UHGV virus genome: UHGV-0105037
Length of the DNA: 19,273 nt
Direction: 5' to 3' (one strand)
DNA from: a virus
Shown: positions 3,361 through 11,787 of the stretch, one piece after another
How positions within the stretch are numbered: the first letter of the stretch is position 1
Layout: each line of letters begins with the position of its first letter
The notes under the pieces: generated by a model
The model's database searches: none
The model's input: only the letters and a program-made list of their open reading frames with translations
What the model was told of the DNA's origin: nothing
Program-made: the position numbers and the translations under genes

Positions 3361-3632
3361 GTATTCGTATTGAAATTGGCGAACGTTATGTCGTTACCAG
3401 TGACAGCTTTCAGTTTATTCTCCACGAGAAAAAGAGAGCTGAAAGCGGTAAAAACGCCGGTCAGGAATGGCTGGCGGTGGTTGGTTATTACCCGAAATTA
3501 AGCCAGCTCGTTTCCGGCCTGATGCATCACGATATTCTGACCGGAAGCGCAAAGTCTTTTGCTGATTTAAACGCGCAGGTTGAGCAACTCAGCAAGCGTT
3601 GTTCAGAGGCTTTTGGCTCATATGGCCGTTAA
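3357..3632 (+). CDS. Hypothetical early protein (P2 orf83-like, 91 aa)
   Basis: Co-oriented ORF with start overlapping the upstream stop; ends where A begins. Confidence 0.6.
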   Translation: MSIRIEIGERYVVTSDSFQFILHEKKRAESGKNAGQEWLAVVGYYPKLSQLVSGLMHHDILTGSAKSFADLNAQVEQLSKRCSEAFGSYGR

Positions 3633-5892
3633 AGCCTCCGGGCGTTTTGTCCCTCCGTCAGCATTTGCCGCAGGCACCGGTAAGACGTTTACCGGTGCTT
3701 ATGCATGGAACGCGCCACGCGAGGCCGTCGGGCGCGAAAGACCCCTTACACGTGACGAGATGCGTCAGGTGCAAGGTGTTTTATCCACGATTAACCGCCT
3801 GCCTTACTTTTTGCGCTCGCTGTTTACTTCACGCTATGACTACATCCGGCGCAATAAAAGCCCGGTGCACGGGTTTTATTTCCTCACATCCACTTTTCAG
3901 CGTCGTTTATGGCCGCGCATTGAGCGTGTGAATCAGCGCCATGAAATGAACACCGACGCGTCGTTGCTGTTTCTGGCAGAGCGTGATCACTATGCGCGCC
4001 TGCCGGGAATGAATGACAAGGAGCTGAAAAAGTTTGCCGCCCGTATCTCATCGCAGCTTTTCATGATGTATGAGGAACTCAGCGATGCCTGGGTGGATGC
4101 GCATGGCGAGAAAGAATCACTGTTTACGGATGAGGCTCAGGATCACCTGTATGGTCATGTTGCTGGCGCTGCACGAGCTTTCAATATTTCCCCTCTCTAC
4201 TGGAAAAAATACCGTAAAAGACAGATGACCACGAGGCAGGCATATTCTGCCATTGCCCGTCTGTTTAACGATGAGTGGTGGACTCATCAGCTTAAAGGCC
4301 AGCGTATGCGCTGGCATGAAGCGTTACTGATAGCTGTCGGGGAGGTCAATAAAGACCGTTCTCCTTATGCCAGTAAACACGCCATTCGTGATGTGCGTGC
4401 GCGCCGCCAGGCAAATCTGGAATTTCTTAAATCGTGTGACCTTGAAAACAGGGAAACCGGCGAGCGCATCGACCTTATCAGTAAGGTGATGGGCAGTATT
4501 TCTAATCCTGAAATTCGCCGGATGGAGCTGATGAACACCATTGCCGGTATTGAGCGTTACGCCGCTGCAGAGGGGGATGTGGGGATGTTTATCACGCTGA
4601 CCGCGCCGTCAAAGTATCACCCGACACGTCAGGTAGGAAAAGGCGAAAGTAAAACCGTGCAGCTTAATCACGGCTGGAACGATGAGGCATTTAATCCAAA
4701 GGATGCGCAGCGTTATCTCTGCCGTATCTGGAGCCTGATGCGCACGGCATTCAAGGATAATGATTTACAGGTCTACGGTTTGCGTGTCGTCGAGCCACAC
4801 CACGACGGAACGCCGCACTGGCATATGATGCTTTTTTGTAATTCACGCCAGCGTAACCAGATTATCGAAATCATGCGTCGCTATGCGCTCAAAGAGGATG
4901 GCGACGAAAGAGGAGCCGCGCGAAACCGTTTTCAGGCAAAACACCTTAACCGGGGCGGTGCTGCGGGATATATCGCGAAATACATTTCAAAAAACATCGA
5001 CGGCTATGCACTGGATGGTCAGCTCGATAACGACACCGGCAGGCCGCTGAAAGACACTGCAGCGGCTGTTACCGCATGGGCGTCAACGTGGCGCATCCCG
5101 CAATTTAAAACGGTTGGCCTGCCGACAATGGGGGCTTACCGTGAACTACGCAAATTGCCGCGCGGCGTCAGCATTGCTGATGAGTTTGACGAGCGCGTCG
5201 AGGCTGCACGCGCCGCCGCAGACAGTGGTGATTTTGCGTTGTATATCAGCGCGCAGGGTGGGGCAAATGTCCCGCGCGATTGTCAGACTGTCAGAGTCGC
5301 CCGTAGCCCGTCGGATGAAGTTAACGAGTACGAGGAAGAAGTCGAGAGAGTGGTCGGCATTTACGCGCCGCATCTCGGCGCGCGTCATATTCATATCACC
5401 AGAACGACGGACTGGCGCATTGTGCCGAAAGTGCCGGTCGTTGAGCCTTTGACTTTAAAAAGCGGCATCGCCGCGCCTCGGAGTCCTGTCAATAACTGTG
5501 GAAAGCTCACCGGTAGTGATGTTTCGTTACCGGCTCCCACACCTTCTGAGCACGCCGCCGCAGTGCTTAATCTGGTTGATGACGGTGTTATCGAATGGAA
5601 TGACCAGGAGGTCGTGAGGGCGCTCAGGGGCGCATTAAAACACGACCTGAGAACACCAAACCGTCAGCAAAGAAGCGGAAGCCCGTTAAAACCGCATGAA
5701 ATAGCGCCATCGGCCAGACTGACCCGGTCGGAACGAATGCAAATTACCCGTATCCGCGTTGACCTTGCTCAGAACGGTATCAGGCCGCAGCGATGGGAGC
5801 TTGAGGCGCTGGCGCGTGGGGCAACTGTAAATTACGACGGGAGAAGCTTCAGTTATCCTGTTATATGTGATTGGAGAGCGTATGAATTATGA
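3622..5892 (+). CDS. A: Replication initiation protein A (rolling-circle HUH endonuclease)
   Basis: Long ORF (770 aa from a TTG at 3580; first ATG at 3622 gives MAVKASGRF..., the N-terminus I recall for P2 A). Contains an HUH-like motif (GTPHWHMMLF) and paired tyrosines (AGYIAKYISK), as in P2 A / phiX174 gpA-type nickases. Confidence 0.9.
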   Translation: MAVKASGRFVPPSAFAAGTGKTFTGAYAWNAPREAVGRERPLTRDEMRQVQGVLSTINRLPYFLRSLFTSRYDYIRRNKSPVHGFYFLTSTFQRRLWPRIERVNQRHEMNTDASLLFLAERDHYARLPGMNDKELKKFAARISSQLFMMYEELSDAWVDAHGEKESLFTDEAQDHLYGHVAGAARAFNISPLYWKKYRKRQMTTRQAYSAIARLFNDEWWTHQLKGQRMRWHEALLIAVGEVNKDRSPYASKHAIRDVRARRQANLEFLKSCDLENRETGERIDLISKVMGSISNPEIRRMELMNTIAGIERYAAAEGDVGMFITLTAPSKYHPTRQVGKGESKTVQLNHGWNDEAFNPKDAQRYLCRIWSLMRTAFKDNDLQVYGLRVVEPHHDGTPHWHMMLFCNSRQRNQIIEIMRRYALKEDGDERGAARNRFQAKHLNRGGAAGYIAKYISKNIDGYALDGQLDNDTGRPLKDTAAAVTAWASTWRIPQFKTVGLPTMGAYRELRKLPRGVSIADEFDERVEAARAAADSGDFALYISAQGGANVPRDCQTVRVARSPSDEVNEYEEEVERVVGIYAPHLGARHIHITRTTDWRIVPKVPVVEPLTLKSGIAAPRSPVNNCGKLTGSDVSLPAPTPSEHAAAVLNLVDDGVIEWNDQEVVRALRGALKHDLRTPNRQQRSGSPLKPHEIAPSARLTRSERMQITRIRVDLAQNGIRPQRWELEALARGATVNYDGRSFSYPVICDWRAYEL

Positions 5893-5985
5893 GATTGTGA
5901 TAAAAAGTAAATAATTAATATAATGCAATTGCTTAACTGTTTTAAAAGGGACAACGTAGTTGTGAACTATATTGTCCCGGGAGTA

Positions 5986-7041
5986 TTAATTTTTAAATAT
6001 GGATTGTATGTATTCTATAGTGCTATCTTTAGCTCTGATGTCTTTTAAAGTGTTATTTATGAAATCTATTATTCTGTCATTACTTAATAGTGGCGATAAC
6101 GCATAACATGTTGTTGTGAATGTCATGACGTCACTAAAGCTTAGTGAAACACCTTTTGTCGCAGCGTTCTCAATCGCAAGAGACTCATCAATATCTAAGT
6201 TTGTTGCTCTTGGCCCTTTAAGGAAGATAACTTTTGAAATCCCGGATGCAGATGCTTTTGAAACGGCGTGATTAACATCTTGATAATTAAATGGTTTGTC
6301 TTTCACTTCTATAGAAAGGAAAACTATATCATCATGATATACATCTATGTCCAGTATCTCTTTTGAGGAGCTACCGGCCTGATTGACGGGATGTGCTTTT
6401 ATTATCCATCCTCTTTGTTCACCTAATAAATGTAACGAAATTGCGGCAGCAATCGCGCATGTTTCTCCATCACAAGGATGAGATATAATATTATAAATAA
6501 TCTTATGGAAATCAAAATTAATTGAGTTCGGCGTTATAACTCTATTGGTTCGCTGTAGGGTAAAATATAATGCAATAACAAGCATTTCATAAGCTAAGGT
6601 TTGGGTTGTTGCTGCATGTAATATATCAATTGAAAGTTGTTGTAAAACCTTATCATTTCCTCTGCGCACAGGGTTATCAGAGGAGTGGAGCATGTAACGA
6701 GCTGGTTTATTTAGAAATGGCTCATTTGATGCGCCTAACTTACCCTCTAAAAATGGGCCTTCTACTTTGCCTACTATTACCGAATGACATAAACTCCTTG
6801 CATCATAGGCTCCGTCTACGGGGGCATTAGCTTGTAAAGCCAGAGGGTTAACTCTAGGGTCTGTTGCTTTTGCAAGTAAACCAGTAATAAGTATATATCT
6901 GTATGTAAGGTGGGTGCCTAAAATTACATTTTGAATGGAGACCCATTGATTATTTGTTTTGTAATCAGTTAATTTTTTTGCATCGTTGATTGCATTTATA
7001 ATTACATTATAGGCTTGCTCATGATTTACTAATACTTTCAT
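5986..7041 (-). CDS. Uncharacterized 351-aa cargo protein; candidate restriction endonuclease or defence effector with a possible PD-(D/E)xK-like motif
   Basis: ORF in a visibly AT-rich segment unlike the flanking phage DNA. Strong RBS (AAGGA, 5 nt before the ATG at 7041). Its start overlaps the stop of the upstream HTH gene by 23 bp. Motif HDDIVFLSIEVKDK could be a D...(D/E)xK nuclease core. I do not recognise the family. Confidence 0.75.
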   Translation of the reverse strand: MKVLVNHEQAYNVIINAINDAKKLTDYKTNNQWVSIQNVILGTHLTYRYILITGLLAKATDPRVNPLALQANAPVDGAYDARSLCHSVIVGKVEGPFLEGKLGASNEPFLNKPARYMLHSSDNPVRRGNDKVLQQLSIDILHAATTQTLAYEMLVIALYFTLQRTNRVITPNSINFDFHKIIYNIISHPCDGETCAIAAAISLHLLGEQRGWIIKAHPVNQAGSSSKEILDIDVYHDDIVFLSIEVKDKPFNYQDVNHAVSKASASGISKVIFLKGPRATNLDIDESLAIENAATKGVSLSFSDVMTFTTTCYALSPLLSNDRIIDFINNTLKDIRAKDSTIEYIQSIFKN

Positions 7042-7333
7042 AGGTGTCCTTTAGTAAGATATCCATTGGTAGACCTAATCGGCTTGCAACCACCTCTAAT
7101 AATTCAAATAGTTCTAAAGCATCTAATCGCCTTTCAAAGCTTTCGATTTTAGATATATCTGATTGTGATAATCCTAGAAAAATGGCCAATTCTGACTGCG
7201 AAAGAGAAGCTTCTTTGCGTAGTTTGGTGAGAAGCTGGACTAGGCACCTGTATCTATGATCATGTATAGTTGGTTGTCGTTTTGCCATGTGGTTTAGAAG
7301 GTGATTGATTGTGTGTCGATCCTTACCTATCAT
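7019..7333 (-). CDS. XRE/Cro-family HTH transcriptional regulator (candidate controller protein); alternative start at 7288
   Basis: Translation contains a typical XRE HTH (LSQSELAIFLGLSQSDISKIE). Translationally coupled to the downstream 351-aa gene and divergent from the methyltransferase. ATG at 7333 gives 104 aa; the internal ATG at 7288 gives 89 aa. Confidence 0.72.
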   Translation of the reverse strand: MIGKDRHTINHLLNHMAKRQPTIHDHRYRCLVQLLTKLRKEASLSQSELAIFLGLSQSDISKIESFERRLDALELFELLEVVASRLGLPMDILLKDTYESISKS

Positions 7334-7371
7334 TGGTTTTATTCCAAAATCGAATAATTGGTGCTAAAGAA

Positions 7372-8463
7372 GTGAACAAAATTTCAGCGGTGAGCTTATT
7401 TACTGGGGCAGGAGGGATGGATGTCGGTTTCTCTAATGCCGGGTTCCGAACAGTTTGGGCCAATGATATAGATAAGGATGCATGTGATACATTTAAGCTT
7501 AATCATGAATCACCTGTTTTTTGTGGTGATATTGATGAGATGCTAAGTGAATTGTCTGGGCTGAAAAATATAGGTTGTGTTTTTGGTGGGCCTCCATGCC
7601 AAGGATTTTCTGTGGCAGGGAAAATGGACGCTCATGATCCACGTAGTAAGCTGGTTATGTCATTCATGCGGGCGGTGGATATAATTCAACCAGAATGCTT
7701 TGTTATGGAGAATGTTAAGGCTTTAGCACAGTTGTCCAAATTTGAACCAGTTAGGTGTGAACTGTTTAAGATGGCTGAAAAGTCAGGCTATCGTTCAGCC
7801 TTGCTGGTGCTGAATTCTAAAGATTTTGGCGTTCCTCAGAATAGGGAACGTATGTTTTTTATAGGGTTTCGTTCCGAAAATGATGTGAAACGAGTTGAGG
7901 CGGCGATAAAAAAATACCAATATCTTTCGCCAACAGTTGGTGAGATTATTCGGCCTTTAGGGCGAGCGGGTAATCCAAATAATTCAAGAGTCTGTAATGC
8001 AAGGATTACAAATGCTGCTAAGCCAGTATTACGGAAGTCACCTTACGCGGGAATGATGTTTAACGGGCAGGGAAGACCAATTAACCCGAATGGGTATGCT
8101 TCAACTATAGCTGCTTCTATGGGGGGGAATAGGACACCAATTATTGATGAAGAACACCTTTATGATGGCTCAACAAGTTATGTTGAGACTTATCATAATC
8201 ATCTAATGAATGGTGGTGAGCCAAAAGATATGCACGATGTACCTAGTCGTTTACGTCGACTAACGATAGATGAGGCTCTTTTGATTCAAACATTCCCGAG
8301 TAATTATGTCTTTGTGGGGAAAAATTCGTCAATTTGGCGTCAGATAGGGAATGCTGTGCCTTGTAAATTGGCGCAGGCTGTTGCTGCAGGGGTTTTGGAT
8401 GTCCTTACTGGTAAAACTATTAATGTTCAAAAGAGTCAAACAGAGTTGAGTTTGAATTCGTAA
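7372..8463 (+). CDS. DNA (cytosine-5)-methyltransferase
   Basis: Canonical C5-MTase motifs: FTGAGGMDVGF (motif I, AdoMet binding), GGPPCQGFS (motif IV, catalytic Cys), ENV (motif VI), QNRERMFFIG (motif VIII), GNAVP (motif X). The frame has no ATG before motif I; the ORF track starts at a TTG at 7309, and I prefer the GTG at 7372, which leaves a typical short leader before FxGxGG. Confidence 0.9.
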   Translation: MNKISAVSLFTGAGGMDVGFSNAGFRTVWANDIDKDACDTFKLNHESPVFCGDIDEMLSELSGLKNIGCVFGGPPCQGFSVAGKMDAHDPRSKLVMSFMRAVDIIQPECFVMENVKALAQLSKFEPVRCELFKMAEKSGYRSALLVLNSKDFGVPQNRERMFFIGFRSENDVKRVEAAIKKYQYLSPTVGEIIRPLGRAGNPNNSRVCNARITNAAKPVLRKSPYAGMMFNGQGRPINPNGYASTIAASMGGNRTPIIDEEHLYDGSTSYVETYHNHLMNGGEPKDMHDVPSRLRRLTIDEALLIQTFPSNYVFVGKNSSIWRQIGNAVPCKLAQAVAAGVLDVLTGKTINVQKSQTELSLNS

Positions 8464-8619
8464 AACGGATCACATTTTCAAACCGATGGATGCAGAATTT
8501 AACATTGCTGCATGAGTTTGCATCTTGAAATCATAAGCTGTACTGCTTAGCTTGACCAGAATTGATGTGGGTAAGAAGTGGTTATGCACCCGCATTAAAA
8601 CCGCCCCATTAAGCGGGCG

Positions 8620-8807: not shown

Positions 8808-9842
8808 TCAGCCGTTGTCAGTGTCCAGTGAGTAGTTTTTAAAGCGGATGACCTCCTGACCGAGCCAGCCGTTTATCTCGCGGATCCTGTCCTGTAACGG
8901 GATAAGCTCATTGCGGACAAAGACCTTTGCCACTTTCTCTATATCACCCAGCGACCCGACGTTCTCCGGCTTGCCACCCATCAACTGAAAGGGGATGCGG
9001 TGCGCGTCCAGCAGGTCAGCGGCGCTGGCTTTTTTGATATTAAAAAAATCGTCCTTCGTCGCCACTTCACTGAGGGGGATAATTTTAATGCCGTCGGCTT
9101 TCCCCTGTGGGGCATAGAGAAACAGATTTTTAAAGTTATTGCGGCCTTTCGACTTAACCATGTTTTCGCGTAGCATTTCGATATCGTTGCGATCCTGCAC
9201 GGCATCAGTGACGTACATGATGTATCCGGCATGTGCGCCATTTTCGTAATACTTGCGGCGGAACAGCGTGGCCGACTCATTCAGCCAGGCAGAATTAAGG
9301 GCGCTGAGATATTCCGGCAGACCGTACAGCTCCTGATTAATATCCGGCTCCAGCAGGTGAAACACGGAGCCGGGCGCGAAGGCTGTCGGCTCGTTGAAGG
9401 ACGGCACCCACCAGTAAACATCCTCTTCCACACCACGGCGGGTATATTTTGCCGGTGAGGTTTCCAGTCTGATGACCTTACCGGTGGTACTGTAACGCTT
9501 TTCCAGAAACGCATTACCGAACACCAGAAAATCCAGCACAAAGCGGCTGAAATCCTGCTGGGAAAGCCACGGGTGCGGGATAAACGTTGAGGCCAGAATA
9601 TTACGTTTGACGTAAATCGGTGAGCTGTGATGCACGGCAGCACGCAGGCTTTTTGCCAGACCGGTAAAGCTGACCGGTGGCTCATACCATCTGCCGTTAC
9701 TGATGCACTCGACGTAATCCAGAATATCACGGCGGTCGAGTACCGGCACCGGCTCACCAAAGGTGAATGCCTCCATTTTCGGGGCGCTGGCAGTCATTGT
9801 TTTCACCGCTGGCTGCGGTGTTTTCCCTTTTTTCTTACTCAT
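8808..9842 (-). CDS. Q: Portal (capsid vertex) protein Q (344 aa)
   Basis: 344-aa ORF next to cos on the minus strand; its start codon overlaps the P stop. Size, position and sequence match P2 Q as recalled. Confidence 0.88.
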   Translation of the reverse strand: MSKKKGKTPQPAVKTMTASAPKMEAFTFGEPVPVLDRRDILDYVECISNGRWYEPPVSFTGLAKSLRAAVHHSSPIYVKRNILASTFIPHPWLSQQDFSRFVLDFLVFGNAFLEKRYSTTGKVIRLETSPAKYTRRGVEEDVYWWVPSFNEPTAFAPGSVFHLLEPDINQELYGLPEYLSALNSAWLNESATLFRRKYYENGAHAGYIMYVTDAVQDRNDIEMLRENMVKSKGRNNFKNLFLYAPQGKADGIKIIPLSEVATKDDFFNIKKASAADLLDAHRIPFQLMGGKPENVGSLGDIEKVAKVFVRNELIPLQDRIREINGWLGQEVIRFKNYSLDTDNG

Positions 9843-11614
9843 CAGTAAAACTCCAGAATGGTGGATGTCAGCGGAGTGCTGATACCGGCGGTGAGTGGCT
9901 CATTTAACAGGGCGTGCATGGTCGCCCAGGCGAGGTCGGCGTGGCTGGCTTCCTCGCTGCGGCTGGCCTCATAGGTGGCGCTGCGTCCGCTGCTGGTCAT
10001 GGTCTTGCGGATAGCCATGAACGAGCTGGTGATGTCGGTGGCGCTGACGTCATATTCCAGACAGCTACGGCGGATAACGTCTTTTGCCTTGAGCACCATT
10101 GCAGTTTTCATTTCCGGCGTGTAGCGGATATCGCGCGCGGCGGGATAGAACGAGCGCACGAGCTGGAACACGCCGACACCGAGGCCGGTGGCATCAATAC
10201 CGATGTATTCGACGTTATATTTTTCGGTGAGTTTGCGGATGGATTCAGCCTGGGTGGCAAAGTCCATGCCTTTCCACTGGTGACGCTCAAGTATTCTGAA
10301 TTTGCCACCGGCCACCACCGGCGGTGCCAGCACCACGCATCCGGCGCTGTCGCCACGGTGTGACGGGTCGTAACCAATCCATACCGGACGTGAGCCGAAC
10401 GGATTGGCGGCAAACGGAGCATAGTCTTCCCATTCTTCCAGCGTGTCGACCATGCAGCGTTGCAGCTCCTCGAACGGGAACACCGACGCCTTGTCGTCAA
10501 CAAATTCACACATGAACAGGTTTTTAAAATCGTCGGCGCTGTTTTCACGTTTGAGCTGCTCAATGTCGAACAGCGTGCAGCCGCCTTTCAGGGCGTCCTC
10601 AATGGTGACAATCTGCCGCCACTGGCCGTCCGCACAGAGAAGCCCACCGGCAAGGGCGTTATGACTGACGTCGATTTCCACGCGCTCGGCGGCGCTGGCG
10701 CGTCCCCGGTTAAACAGTTCACCCGACCAGAACGGGTAGGCGTCGTGCGCCAGTGTGGACGGGGTGGAGAAATAGGTCGAGCGCAGGTGACTCTGTGAGG
10801 CCATACCTGATGCCACCTTACGCAGTACCTGAAAATTCGGGATCCAGAAAATCTCGTCGACGTACAGGTCGCCGTTATGGCTCTGCGCGGTGTTGGAGTT
10901 GGTGCCGAGAAAAATCAGTTTTGCGCCGTTATTGCCCAGGACAATCGGGTCACCGGTCAGGTCAACGTCAACCAGCCGGGCAAAGGCGATGATGTATTCG
11001 CGGAACACATACGCCTGCGTTTTACTGGCCGACAGAAAAATCTGGTTATGACCGGTTTTCAGGGCGCGCAGCAGCGCCTCGCGGGAAAAATAAAACGTCG
11101 CGCCAATCTGGCGGGATTTCAGGATATCGCGGATGCGGTGCTCAAGCCCGGCGCGATACCAGTGCAACTGATATTCGAAAGACTGCTCAAAGAAAATCTG
11201 CTCCAGCTTTTCGATGGCCTCGTCACTGAAAAAATTCTTTTTCGGTTTGCGCCGCCCGCCTTTGTTGCGGTTAGCGACGTTCGGATTAAGGTCTGCCTCG
11301 TTGCCGGTCTGACTGTAACGGTTTACCCGTGCCAGTCGTTCAATCTGGCGTCCGAGCAGGTCAATTTCCTTGAAGTCACCGCCAGTTTTCTGCGGTTTGA
11401 TGATGAGCTGGGTCAGCCGCGCTTCCAGACTCATTTCGACACGGCTGATGGGGGCAACGCTGTCCCAGCCGTCGCGCTGTTTCCAGCTCTGCACCGTCGG
11501 GCGTTTCATCTGCAACATGGCGGCAATCTGCGGCACGGAAAACCCCTGCCAGTACAGCAGCGCCGCCTGACGACGCGGGTCGTGTAAAAGAGTGGTGTCT
11601 GTGGTGATGGTCAT
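9842..11614 (-). CDS. P: Terminase large subunit (ATPase/nuclease) P (590 aa from ATG at 11614)
   Basis: The ORF extends to 11644, but the internal ATG at 11614 (MTITTDTTLL...) has GAGGT 4-5 nt upstream and gives the 590-aa P2 P length. Large ORF adjacent to and co-transcribed with the portal gene. Confidence 0.9.
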   Translation of the reverse strand: MTITTDTTLLHDPRRQAALLYWQGFSVPQIAAMLQMKRPTVQSWKQRDGWDSVAPISRVEMSLEARLTQLIIKPQKTGGDFKEIDLLGRQIERLARVNRYSQTGNEADLNPNVANRNKGGRRKPKKNFFSDEAIEKLEQIFFEQSFEYQLHWYRAGLEHRIRDILKSRQIGATFYFSREALLRALKTGHNQIFLSASKTQAYVFREYIIAFARLVDVDLTGDPIVLGNNGAKLIFLGTNSNTAQSHNGDLYVDEIFWIPNFQVLRKVASGMASQSHLRSTYFSTPSTLAHDAYPFWSGELFNRGRASAAERVEIDVSHNALAGGLLCADGQWRQIVTIEDALKGGCTLFDIEQLKRENSADDFKNLFMCEFVDDKASVFPFEELQRCMVDTLEEWEDYAPFAANPFGSRPVWIGYDPSHRGDSAGCVVLAPPVVAGGKFRILERHQWKGMDFATQAESIRKLTEKYNVEYIGIDATGLGVGVFQLVRSFYPAARDIRYTPEMKTAMVLKAKDVIRRSCLEYDVSATDITSSFMAIRKTMTSSGRSATYEASRSEEASHADLAWATMHALLNEPLTAGISTPLTSTILEFY

Positions 11615-11787
11615 GAATACCTCGCCGTGATGAATACACGGCAAGGCTACTGAGTCGCGCCCCGCGATTCGCTAAGGTGCTGTTGTGTCAGTGATAAGCC
11701 ATCCGGGACTGATGGCGGAGGATGCGCATCGTCGGGAAACTGATGCCGACATGTGACTCCTCTAATCACTATTCAGGACTCCTGACA
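11615..11787. promoter_or_regulatory. Divergent late-promoter region between P and O (expected Ogr-dependent promoters)
   Basis: 173-bp intergenic region between divergent late operons. Contains the inverted repeat ccatc-N7-gatgg (11699-11715) and TGT-rich sequence (tgttgtgtca, 11681-11690). I could not place an exact TGT-N12-ACA activator site. Confidence 0.35.

Follow-up and report, generated by a model that had tools for sequence, protein, structure and literature searches.

The small HTH gene of a P2-like Escherichia coli prophage encodes the controller protein of EcoT38I restriction-modification: gene starts, predicted operator and a proposed regulatory mechanism

Introduction

In the PvuII restriction-modification (R-M) system, the controller (C) gene forms an operon with the endonuclease (R) gene and overlaps it, the methyltransferase (M) gene is transcribed divergently, and nuclease expression is delayed after entry (PMC2175313, PMC2997769, PMC2377437). 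The C-R operon of PvuII has a weak C-independent promoter and a C-dependent promoter, the latter giving a leaderless C-dependent mRNA, and two M promoters oppose it (PMC2175313). Its control region carries a 35-bp double C-box with a GTG/TGTA spacer, at which activation is followed by repression. This box represents the PvuII-type class (motifs 1-4), which consists of two tandem palindromic operators with a conserved GTG between them and complementary trinucleotides flanking, while C.EcoRV and C.EcoO109I represent palindromic single-operator classes (motifs 7 and 8) (Sorokin et al. 2009, PMC2632904).

Another C protein listed in REBASE, with a predicted upstream site, is C.EcoT38I, and the EcoT38I system is placed on P2 by the title of its description (Kita, Kawakami and Tanaka 2003, J Bacteriol 185:2296). 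In the other literature that we searched, EcoT38I was mentioned in reference lists or tables only, and for the structure 2EF8 no description was found beyond 'E. coli putative transcription factor'. Experiments by Kita and colleagues in 2003 reportedly showed that C.EcoT38I activates the expression of R and represses that of M.

We analysed a window of 19,273 nucleotides (the whole stretch of DNA examined, UHGV virus genome UHGV-0105037), for which an initial annotation had proposed that a small HTH ORF is the R-M controller between a divergent M gene and a following R gene. The features discussed below are collected in Table 1.

Results

Identity of the locus

The methyltransferase read from GTG 7372 agreed letter for letter with UniProt Q83VT0 (taxon Peduovirus P2), and residues 6-89 of the HTH protein were 100% identical to PDB 2EF8. 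The interval from the R start to the M start (7042-7371) was 330 nt, and Kita and colleagues reportedly gave an intergenic length of 330 nt. We take Q83VT0 and 2EF8 to be the deposits of M.EcoT38I and C.EcoT38I, respectively. This assignment is supported by the rare codons tabulated for EcoT38I, which are AUA at codon 15 of R and GGG at codons 12 and 15 of M (PMC6456624); all of them were found at the same codons here. The small HTH gene is the previously characterised C protein of EcoT38I, an ordinary and already known feature, and the proposal of an R-M controller at this position was correct. By locus identity, the 351-aa gene is R.EcoT38I. When the regulatory mechanism proposed below is included, we consider it highly probable that this ORF encodes the controller of the type II R-M system EcoT38I in a P2-like E. 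coli prophage.

Table 1. Features of the EcoT38I locus and its surroundings in the window
Feature	Position	Strand	Basis or details
Phage_GPA gene (gpA)	3580-5892		Flanks the island
R-M cargo island, low GC	5862-8580	.	Between P2 gene A and cos/gene Q
R gene, 351 aa, SacI family	5986-7041	-	Pfam RE_SacI, E 1.9e-76
C gene (C.EcoT38I), 89 aa from conserved ATG 7288	7019-7288	-	HTH_3, 2EF8 identity, start conservation
Overlap of C 3' end and R 5' end, 23 bp	7019-7041	-	R ATG at 7041, C stop at 7021-7019
Shine-Dalgarno AAGGA of R, within C coding sequence	7047-7051	-	5 nt before ATG 7041; read from sequence
Candidate distal M promoter, within C gene (codons 7-16)	7241-7270	+	-35 TAGGCA 7241-7246, 18-nt spacer, -10 TATAGT 7265-7270 (promoter scan)
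Candidate proximal M promoter	7305-7333	+	-35 TTGATT 7305-7310, 17-nt spacer, -10 TATCAT 7328-7333, predicted start about 7340; 9/12 matches (promoter scan)
Alternative candidate C/R -10, CACAAT	7313-7308	-	Versus AAGGAT 7324-7319; the two are not separated by sequence alone
Candidate weak C/R promoter	7319-7347	-	-35 TTGGAA 7347-7342 (within operator), 17-nt spacer, -10 AAGGAT 7324-7319, predicted start about 7312; 7/12 matches
Predicted operator (C-box), 17-bp palindrome, TATTCGATTTTGGAATA on C strand	7340-7356	.	Consensus TATTCSA-N3-TSGAATA
Candidate M -10 in operator centre, CAAAAT	7345-7350	+	Paired with TTACCT 7323-7328
Shine-Dalgarno-like GGTG of M	7360-7363	+	8 nt before M start; AGGTG in homologues (alignment)
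M gene (M.EcoT38I), C5 DNA methyltransferase, 363 aa from GTG 7372	7372-8463	+	PF00145, E 1.3e-66; RefSeq start; Q83VT0
Portal gene	8808-9842		Flanks the island
Terminase gene	9842-11644		

The proteins themselves agree with this identity. The RE_SacI match covered R over the full length of the profile (residues 4-277 aligned with positions 4-276 of a 276-position profile), RefSeq labels the gene 'restriction endonuclease, SacI family', and the pairing of a SacI-family type IIP endonuclease with a C5 methyltransferase is found here likewise (RE_SacI and PF00145). C, with 89 aa and a solved structure, is within the range of C proteins (about 70-100 aa, XRE-type HTH), and its ORF matched Pfam HTH_3 above the gathering score (E 1.8e-6). 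It also gave weak matches to the structures of C.BclI (E 0.015) and C.AhdI (E 0.046), with marginal sequence similarity.

The recognition site of EcoT38I is presumably GRGCYC, which is degenerate and includes the SacI site GAGCTC, and methylation would be expected on its inner cytosine. No GRGCYC was observed in the window against 15.5 expected, but P2, which lacks this system, equally avoids the site (0 in 33.6 kb); the avoidance is therefore not diagnostic, and it was ruled out as evidence of specificity.

The three genes lie in a cargo island of 2.7 kb with a GC content of 31-44%, compared to 50-60% outside, and similarity to P2-like phages by Megablast ends near 5861 and returns near 8581. 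The same slot holds tin/old in the map of phage P2, and P2 itself is without the M-C-R trio. The EcoT38I system of the defective P2 prophage has the same M, the same C residues 6-89 and the same slot between P2 genes A and Q, with R and M head-to-head and the C gene within that interval, overlapping R. There is no detectable difference between the two, and we regard the present locus as that system, carried by a different E. coli isolate. A search of the phage collection with the R-M insert as query gave no match. The layout, in which M diverges from C and C is followed by R with a C/R overlap of 8-56 bp, recurred in nine homologous loci that are independent of one another, with C proteins 46-89% identical, so the gene arrangement is not a matter of chance.

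Start codons of C and M

The initial annotation had put the 5' end of the HTH ORF at 7333 or 7288, had its 3' end overlap the start of the 351-aa gene by 23 bp, and had offered TTG 7309 or GTG 7372 as the M start, there being no ATG before motif I. All of these positions were confirmed: the HTH ORF is 7019-7333 on the minus strand (104 aa from ATG 7333, with a second in-frame ATG at 7288), R begins at ATG 7041 with a 23-bp overlap, the first ATG of the M ORF is the Met within motif I (GAGGMD), and TTG 7309 and GTG 7372 are the only upstream starts listed. The anatomy of the starts and of the operator was then refined by comparison with more than 20 homologous loci (designated by L numbers).

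In the twelve loci checked for it, only one start of C was conserved, six codons before TIHD (an ATG in ten loci and a GTG in the other two, L007 and L009), which by this comparison sets the start of C at ATG 7288 and not at 7333. For M, an ATG was aligned with GTG 7372 in L004, L006, L008 and L011, and the homologues diverge upstream of that position. The alignment sets the M start at GTG 7372, and TTG 7309 was rejected. Because the starts are ATG 7288 and GTG 7372, C overlaps only R and is separated from M by a spacer of 83 bp (7289-7371); the gap would be 38 bp from the RefSeq C start at 7333. Of the claim that the HTH gene overlaps both neighbours, the 23-bp overlap with R was retained, and that with M was replaced by the 83-bp gap.

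A single predicted palindromic operator

The 17-bp palindrome in the spacer was unique in the window, with one match when up to 2 mismatches were allowed (0.18 expected), and it had a PWM score of 25.7 bits compared to 7.1 for the next best site in the window. It was found upstream of the C homologues in L002-L012, L014-L018, L020-L021, L023, L025 and L162-L164. In a scan of metagenomes with the exact operator, which gave 120 loci, 111 had no nearby C homologue and were taken as chance 17-mer matches, and the palindrome was found with a C homologue in nine metagenomic loci (C proteins 34-74% identical). Its conservation in more than 20 loci extended across phyla and included C proteins that were only 34-49% identical, and in every case it lay 1-18 nt from the M start codon, with the C gene on its other side. 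This comparative evidence suggests that the palindrome is likely the C operator, overlapping candidate promoter elements for both directions.

A second operator was not found at this locus, where the next-best PWM match within 7200-7450 scored 0.2 bits. An 18-bp imperfect palindrome at 7251-7268 was considered as a second operator and rejected, as it shares only the outer TAT/ATA triplets with the first. Distant relatives (L077, L125, L130 and L117/L123) have a second operator copy, which overlaps the first by 2 nt.

The locus thus differs from PvuII, whose double C-box comprises two operators, in having one palindrome of unrelated sequence with no detectable second copy in the PWM scan. EcoO109I is also prophage-borne (P4-like), and C.EcoO109I binds CTAAG-N5-CTTAG, a sequence different from the TATTCSA-N3-TSGAATA of the EcoT38I locus. 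By operator form, the single palindrome resembles those of C.EcoRV and C.EcoO109I rather than the 35-bp double box. EcoRV shares the divergence of the M and R promoters as well.

Candidate promoters in both directions

For M, three promoter candidates compete, and the sequence does not rank them; plus-strand transcription is predicted to start near 7277, 7340 and/or 7357. The proximal candidate is accompanied in most enterobacterial homologues by TTGCnT-like and TAnCAT-like hexamers at equal offsets, and another has its -10 in the centre of the operator. The distal candidate coincides exactly with a 30-nt block (7241-7270) that is invariant even at synonymous sites. In a codon table of seven loci, a single codon was used at 9 of the 10 positions of the block compared to 4 of 32 elsewhere (Fisher p = 1.4e-5), and the block was invariant in three further loci, making ten in all. 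A different source of the constraint could be its rare codons (ATA/AGA/AGG/CTA) or the Dam GATC site at 7258-7261. Since this constrained promoter-like block sits inside the C gene, the spacer need not hold every promoter. The idea that both promoters must fit into less than 90 bp was borne out insofar as the spacer contains the operator and promoter-like elements in both directions, but not for the constrained M-directed site. This candidate, which faces C/R, resembles the opposing pvuIIM and pvuIICR promoters of PvuII (PMC2175313).

In the C/R direction, a hexamer of the rACnAT type kept a constant distance to the operator (16-17 nt) in most aligned loci, and in distant loci such a hexamer was located 6-8 nt before the C start codon, which is the geometry of a leaderless mRNA. 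The predicted leader of the C mRNA is about 23 nt long here, without a Shine-Dalgarno sequence. The EcoT38I candidates parallel the arrangement of PvuII in the weak C/R promoter, in the presence of more than one M promoter and in their opposing directions.

Discussion

We propose the following mechanism for the regulation of EcoT38I. On entry into a new cell there would be no C protein, and M would be made from the plus-strand sigma-70 promoter candidates (7305-7333, 7241-7270 and TTACCT/CAAAAT). The C/R promoter (TTGGAA, 17 nt, AAGGAT) would be weak and would overlap the M promoters back-to-back, so that C would accumulate slowly. A C dimer might then bind 7340-7356, which would correspond to the M -10, the start region or the early leader, and M transcription would fall. 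At the same time, the bound operator would overlap the C/R -35 and C/R transcription would rise, either via contact with RNA polymerase or via relieved promoter competition, resulting in positive feedback and delayed endonuclease synthesis. Direct activation from the operator would be uncertain, because its centre is at about -36 relative to the predicted C/R start. Sites of classic class II activators are more distant (-41.5), and in PvuII-type systems it is the repressing operator that has a similar position.

A more specific version is possible, although we hold it to be doubtful. In it, the single 17-bp operator would be both the M -10/start region and the C/R -35, the second M promoter in C codons 7-16 would fire head-on into C/R, and timing would be set mostly by competition and interference instead of by activating and repressing operators. 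If this is true and these elements were unmapped in the 2003 paper, C-protein circuitry would have a form not described before, unlike the textbook two-operator C-box, and the circuit would be common to a family ranging from Enterobacteria to Alphaproteobacteria, Legionellales and Acidobacteria.

Other explanations of the delayed endonuclease can be weighed against the proposed mechanism. C could be a repressor only, acting on M and/or its own promoter, with R rising indirectly when the weak C/R promoter is freed from a stronger M promoter, with no contact to RNA polymerase. The studied C proteins C.PvuII and C.AhdI are direct activators, and the very weak predicted C/R promoter (7/12) is typical of activator-dependent promoters, so we consider a pure repressor unlikely, even though the operator overlaps the candidate C/R -35 with a centre near -36, which is unusual for an activator, the candidate promoters are interleaved back-to-back, and a further M-directed promoter-like site within the C gene faces the C/R promoter. 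Opposing promoters and their possible interference have been discussed for PvuII as well (PMC2175313). We give somewhat less credit still to the explanation that the main gate on endonuclease synthesis is translational coupling via the 23-bp C/R overlap, a coupling which the initial annotation had held the overlap to imply. An overlap is present in all nine homologous loci, and PMC2997769 describes such an overlap as typical of C-controlled systems, with a +/- 20 nt rule for C/R placement that the 23 bp here fits. On the other hand, R has its own AAGGA at 5-nt spacing, the overlap varies in length (8, 11, 23, 35 or 56 bp), and no hairpin occluding the ribosome-binding site was predicted at the R start, where the fold was weaker than in shuffled controls (z = +1.5). 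For the PvuII overlap, the only one tested by experiment, translation of R did not depend on that of C in direct tests (PMC2997769).

If C were made from ATG 7333 (104 aa) and/or M from TTG 7309 (384 aa), the two genes would share sequence head-to-head, with the palindrome falling in coding sequence. Both ORFs are open, RefSeq annotates the 104-aa C as a 'helix-turn-helix domain-containing protein', and databases hold four different M lengths, including 384-aa and 397-aa versions besides 363 aa. We nevertheless regard these long forms as very improbable and the RefSeq start of C as probably over-long: an in-frame ATG equivalent to 7333 is absent from five loci (L002, L004, L006, L008 and L010), no conservation at the protein level is seen for 7289-7333, the homologues of M align and diverge as described above, the deposited M (Q83VT0) has 363 aa, and DNA conservation of the palindrome extends to loci in which it clearly does not code for protein. 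We consider it extremely unlikely that the HTH protein has no part in R-M control and is instead an XRE regulator of the prophage or antitoxin type. Its best NCBIfam matches were antitoxins of the HipB/Y4mF type and phage repressors, all of them far below the cut-offs, and although the window is prophage, the gene travels with M and R and not with P2, as the trio was found outside P2 contexts in L010, L016, L018 and L021. P2 itself has no such HTH gene, and the gene is catalogued as C.EcoT38I.

The locus has little importance as a discovery, since the cloning, assays and crystallisation of this system date back some twenty years, and the practical value of this analysis is corrective, in that both starts are fixed and the operator is defined by comparative analysis. 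Studies of the timing of a phage-borne R-M nuclease on lysogenisation would find precise targets in the consensus of the operator and in the 30-nt block under constraint. Among 5426 complete E. coli genomes, 20 carry the system at 99.5% identity or higher.

Identity of the locus

The locus is the type II restriction-modification (R-M) system EcoT38I, and its HTH gene with the surrounding regulatory region is the already known C.EcoT38I. In EcoT38I, as Kita and co-workers reportedly described it, R and M lie head-to-head 330 nt apart, with the C gene between them and overlapping R; C is said to activate R and repress M, the specificity to be GRGCYC, and the insertion to lie between P2 genes A and Q. 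The segment from R start to M start, 7042-7371, is exactly 330 nt. Read from GTG 7372, M is identical to UniProt Q83VT0 (taxon Peduovirus P2), and the 89-aa HTH protein shows, over its residues 6-89, 100% identity to the 84-residue chain of PDB 2EF8. The rare codons listed for EcoT38I in a table of E. coli R-M genes, AUA at R codon 15 and GGG at M codons 12 and 15 (PMC6456624), match exactly with ATG 7041 taken as the R start and GTG 7372 as the M start. C.EcoT38I is also among the REBASE C proteins with an upstream binding motif predicted by Sorokin et al. (PMC2632904), and the title of Kita, Kawakami and Tanaka 2003 puts EcoT38I on P2. Together with the 330-nt spacing, these matches identify the locus, and the initial annotation, which took the HTH gene for an R-M controller between divergent M and R, was thus right in substance.

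Features of the prophage and the R-M locus (positions in the window)
Feature	Position	Strand	Description
Replication protein gpA	3580-5892		
R ORF	7041-5986	minus	351 codons; RE_SacI, full-length, E 1.9e-76
C ORF	7333-7019	minus	ATG 7333 to stop 7021-7019, 104 codons; second in-frame ATG at 7288; Pfam HTH_3, E 1.8e-6, above gathering score
M ORF	ends 8463	plus	C5 cytosine methyltransferase PF00145, E 1.3e-66
Candidate operator	7356-7340	minus (C strand)	palindrome TATTCGATTTTGGAATA, 17 bp, within C-M spacer
Candidate M promoter	7305-7333	plus	TTGATT-17-TATCAT; scan, 9/12
Candidate M promoter	7241-7270	plus	TAGGCA-18-TATAGT; scan, 9/12
Candidate M promoter	7323-7328, 7345-7350	plus	TTACCT, CAAAAT; comparison
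Candidate C/R promoter	7324-7319 (-10), 7347-7342 (-35)	minus	AAGGAT, TTGGAA; comparison, match 7/12
Portal gene	8808-9842		
Terminase gene	9842-11644		

Translation starts and the C/R overlap

Homologous loci were gathered through the C protein, with an additional metagenome scan using the operator sequence. Among the 12 loci checked, the sole in-frame C start that is conserved precedes the TIHD motif by six codons (ATG in 10, GTG in L007 and L009), and its equivalent in the window is ATG 7288. The alternative start, ATG 7333, was rejected, because its in-frame equivalent is absent from five loci (L002, L004, L006, L008 and L010) and the stretch between the two ATGs shows no protein-level conservation among the homologous loci. 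For M, the earliest ATG encodes the Met within motif I, leaving only TTG 7309 and GTG 7372 upstream, as the initial annotation had it. GTG 7372, which is also the start used by RefSeq and Q83VT0, aligns with an ATG in L004, L006, L008 and L011, and further upstream the homologues diverge, apart from (A)GGTG, which resembles an SD and precedes the start by 8 nt; TTG 7309 was rejected on these grounds. With starts assigned by this conservation, together with RefSeq and Q83VT0, C is read as an 89-aa and M as a 363-aa protein, 83 bp apart, so that C overlaps R alone and the overlap with M first proposed disappears. Public annotation of these starts is inconsistent: proteins of 69-104 aa share the C cluster (7019-7333), and one gene is represented in the M cluster (7309-8463) by forms of 348, 363, 384 and 397 aa.

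The overlap with R stands as first described, R starting 23 bp inside the C ORF, on the same strand and directly downstream. Translational coupling, which had been read from it, is not implied, because R has its own SD (AAGGA, 5 nt before its ATG), the length of the overlap differs between homologues (8-56 bp), the overlap region folds no better than shuffled controls, and C and R of PvuII were translated independently in direct tests (PMC2997769).

A conserved candidate operator between C and M

The candidate operator (C-box) is unique in the window, where a search allowing up to two mismatches gives a single match (0.18 expected), and scores 25.7 bits against 7.1 for the next-best site. It was kept between variable flanks in all nine first-round loci; of the 12 closest genome loci, from Alphaproteobacteria, Legionellales, Thiotrichaceae and Bryobacteraceae, 10 have it, as do the three extra enterobacterial loci; beside nine metagenomic C homologues it is base-for-base identical at a protein identity of only 34-74%. 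Its consensus is TATTCSA-N3-TSGAATA. In every case it has the C gene on one side and, at a distance of 1-18 nt, the M start codon on the other, and these C homologues hardly vary in their predicted recognition helix, SQSDISKIE. Such conservation is what would be expected of a cognate C-box, and the defined consensus with its wide phylogenetic spread is possibly new. Whereas the PvuII class has a 35-bp double box, the EcoT38I locus has a single palindrome, no second copy being detectable in this locus.

In the metagenomic loci L077, L125, L130 and L117/L123, C homologues of 34-43% identity are preceded by the identical 17-bp operator, which is followed by a weaker second copy beginning at operator position 16 (2-nt overlap, 15 bp centre-to-centre). 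This arrangement resembles an OL/OR pair, which the EcoT38I locus does not have. Elsewhere, a C and operator module, with neither R nor M matched beside it, adjoins an AAA_21/DUF4435 ATPase gene in convergent orientation (L015, 2884-5012); the HTH makes up the N-terminus of what may be a C fusion, a protein of 262 aa (L025, 2995-3783); and a 359-aa ORF without a Pfam match lies downstream of C (L020, 3258-4337).

Candidate promoters and regulatory model

The best-supported model is the classical C-controlled delay proposed in the initial annotation. M would be expressed first while C builds up slowly from a weak promoter; C would then bind the operator, lowering M transcription and raising that of C/R, and the nuclease would therefore appear late. 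The rise in C/R could come from direct activation by C at a site centred near -36, or from relief of competition by interleaved M promoters. For the kinetics, the pair of weak and strong promoters and the opposing M and C/R promoters, the PvuII studies provide measured precedents (PMC2175313, PMC2997769, PMC2377437).

The scores of both scanned M promoter candidates are no higher than shuffled sequence yields, and it is comparison that adds weight to both. For 7305-7333, most enterobacterial loci have TTGCnT-like and TAnCAT-like hexamers at matching offsets. The 30 nt of 7241-7270 correspond exactly to C codons 7-16 (89-aa reading) and are nucleotide-invariant in 10 loci, one variable Arg codon excepted, among C proteins 64-89% identical. 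Single-codon positions make up 9 of 10 in this block against 4 of 32 elsewhere in C (7 loci; Fisher p = 1.4e-5), where synonymous sites vary freely. This constrained promoter-like block is possibly new, and with an M-directed candidate inside the C gene, the earlier statement that all promoters sit in under 90 bp is wrong or not established. Four rare codons (ATA, AGA, AGG and CTA) fall in the block too, as does the palindrome ATGATCAT, which includes a Dam GATC site (7258-7261).

A further M promoter candidate is the window's counterpart of a pair seen in distant loci, where TTGACA or TTGACT, both near consensus, stands 17-18 bp away from CAAAWT, the centre of the operator. With any of these promoters, protein bound at 7340-7356 would cover the -10, start site or early leader of the M transcript, consistent with repression of M. 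Most of the aligned loci have, on the minus strand, an rACnAT-type hexamer at a constant distance of 16-17 nt from the operator; in distant loci, 6-8 nt separate this hexamer from the C start codon, a leaderless-mRNA geometry like that of the C-dependent pvuIIC transcript of PvuII, known to be leaderless (PMC2175313). The poor match of the C/R candidate would be expected of a promoter that is activator-dependent or easily out-competed.

Prophage setting and GRGCYC avoidance

The window is a P2-like prophage, in which similarity to P2-like phages breaks off at ~5861 and picks up again at ~8581. The intervening 2.7 kb has a GC content of 31-44% against 50-60% outside, and this slot, here filled by the R-M island, is occupied in phage P2 by tin and old. 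Of 5426 complete E. coli genomes, 20 carry the island at an identity of at least 99.5%, in every case on the chromosome, and it had no match in the phage collection searched. In Yersinia aldovae (L004/L005), a homologous M/C/R trio has ogr and gpD as neighbours where a P2-like prophage ends, and in Enterobacter ludwigii (L010) the trio adjoins a PIN-domain gene in a non-phage setting. Since the trio takes other positions in other hosts, the cassette moves independently of P2.

The 19.3-kb window has no GRGCYC site at all, where 15.5 +/- 3.5 would be expected. We rejected this absence as a footprint of the system's specificity, because phage P2 (AF063097), with tin/old instead of the R-M system, is equally devoid of sites in 33.6 kb. 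In the E. coli 13TMH22 lysogen (L041, NZ_CP019256.1), the P2-like parts also have none, against 25 in 34.75 kb of an inserted IS26-bounded resistance island. Both comparisons suggest that avoidance is a trait of the P2 lineage and says nothing of this copy. That lysogen carries the identical R-M island, and its prophage is split in the tail-fibre region by the ~35-kb multiresistance island (13700-48450), which carries aac(3)-IIe, oqxAB, tet(B), dfrA17, aadA5, sul1 and mph(A).
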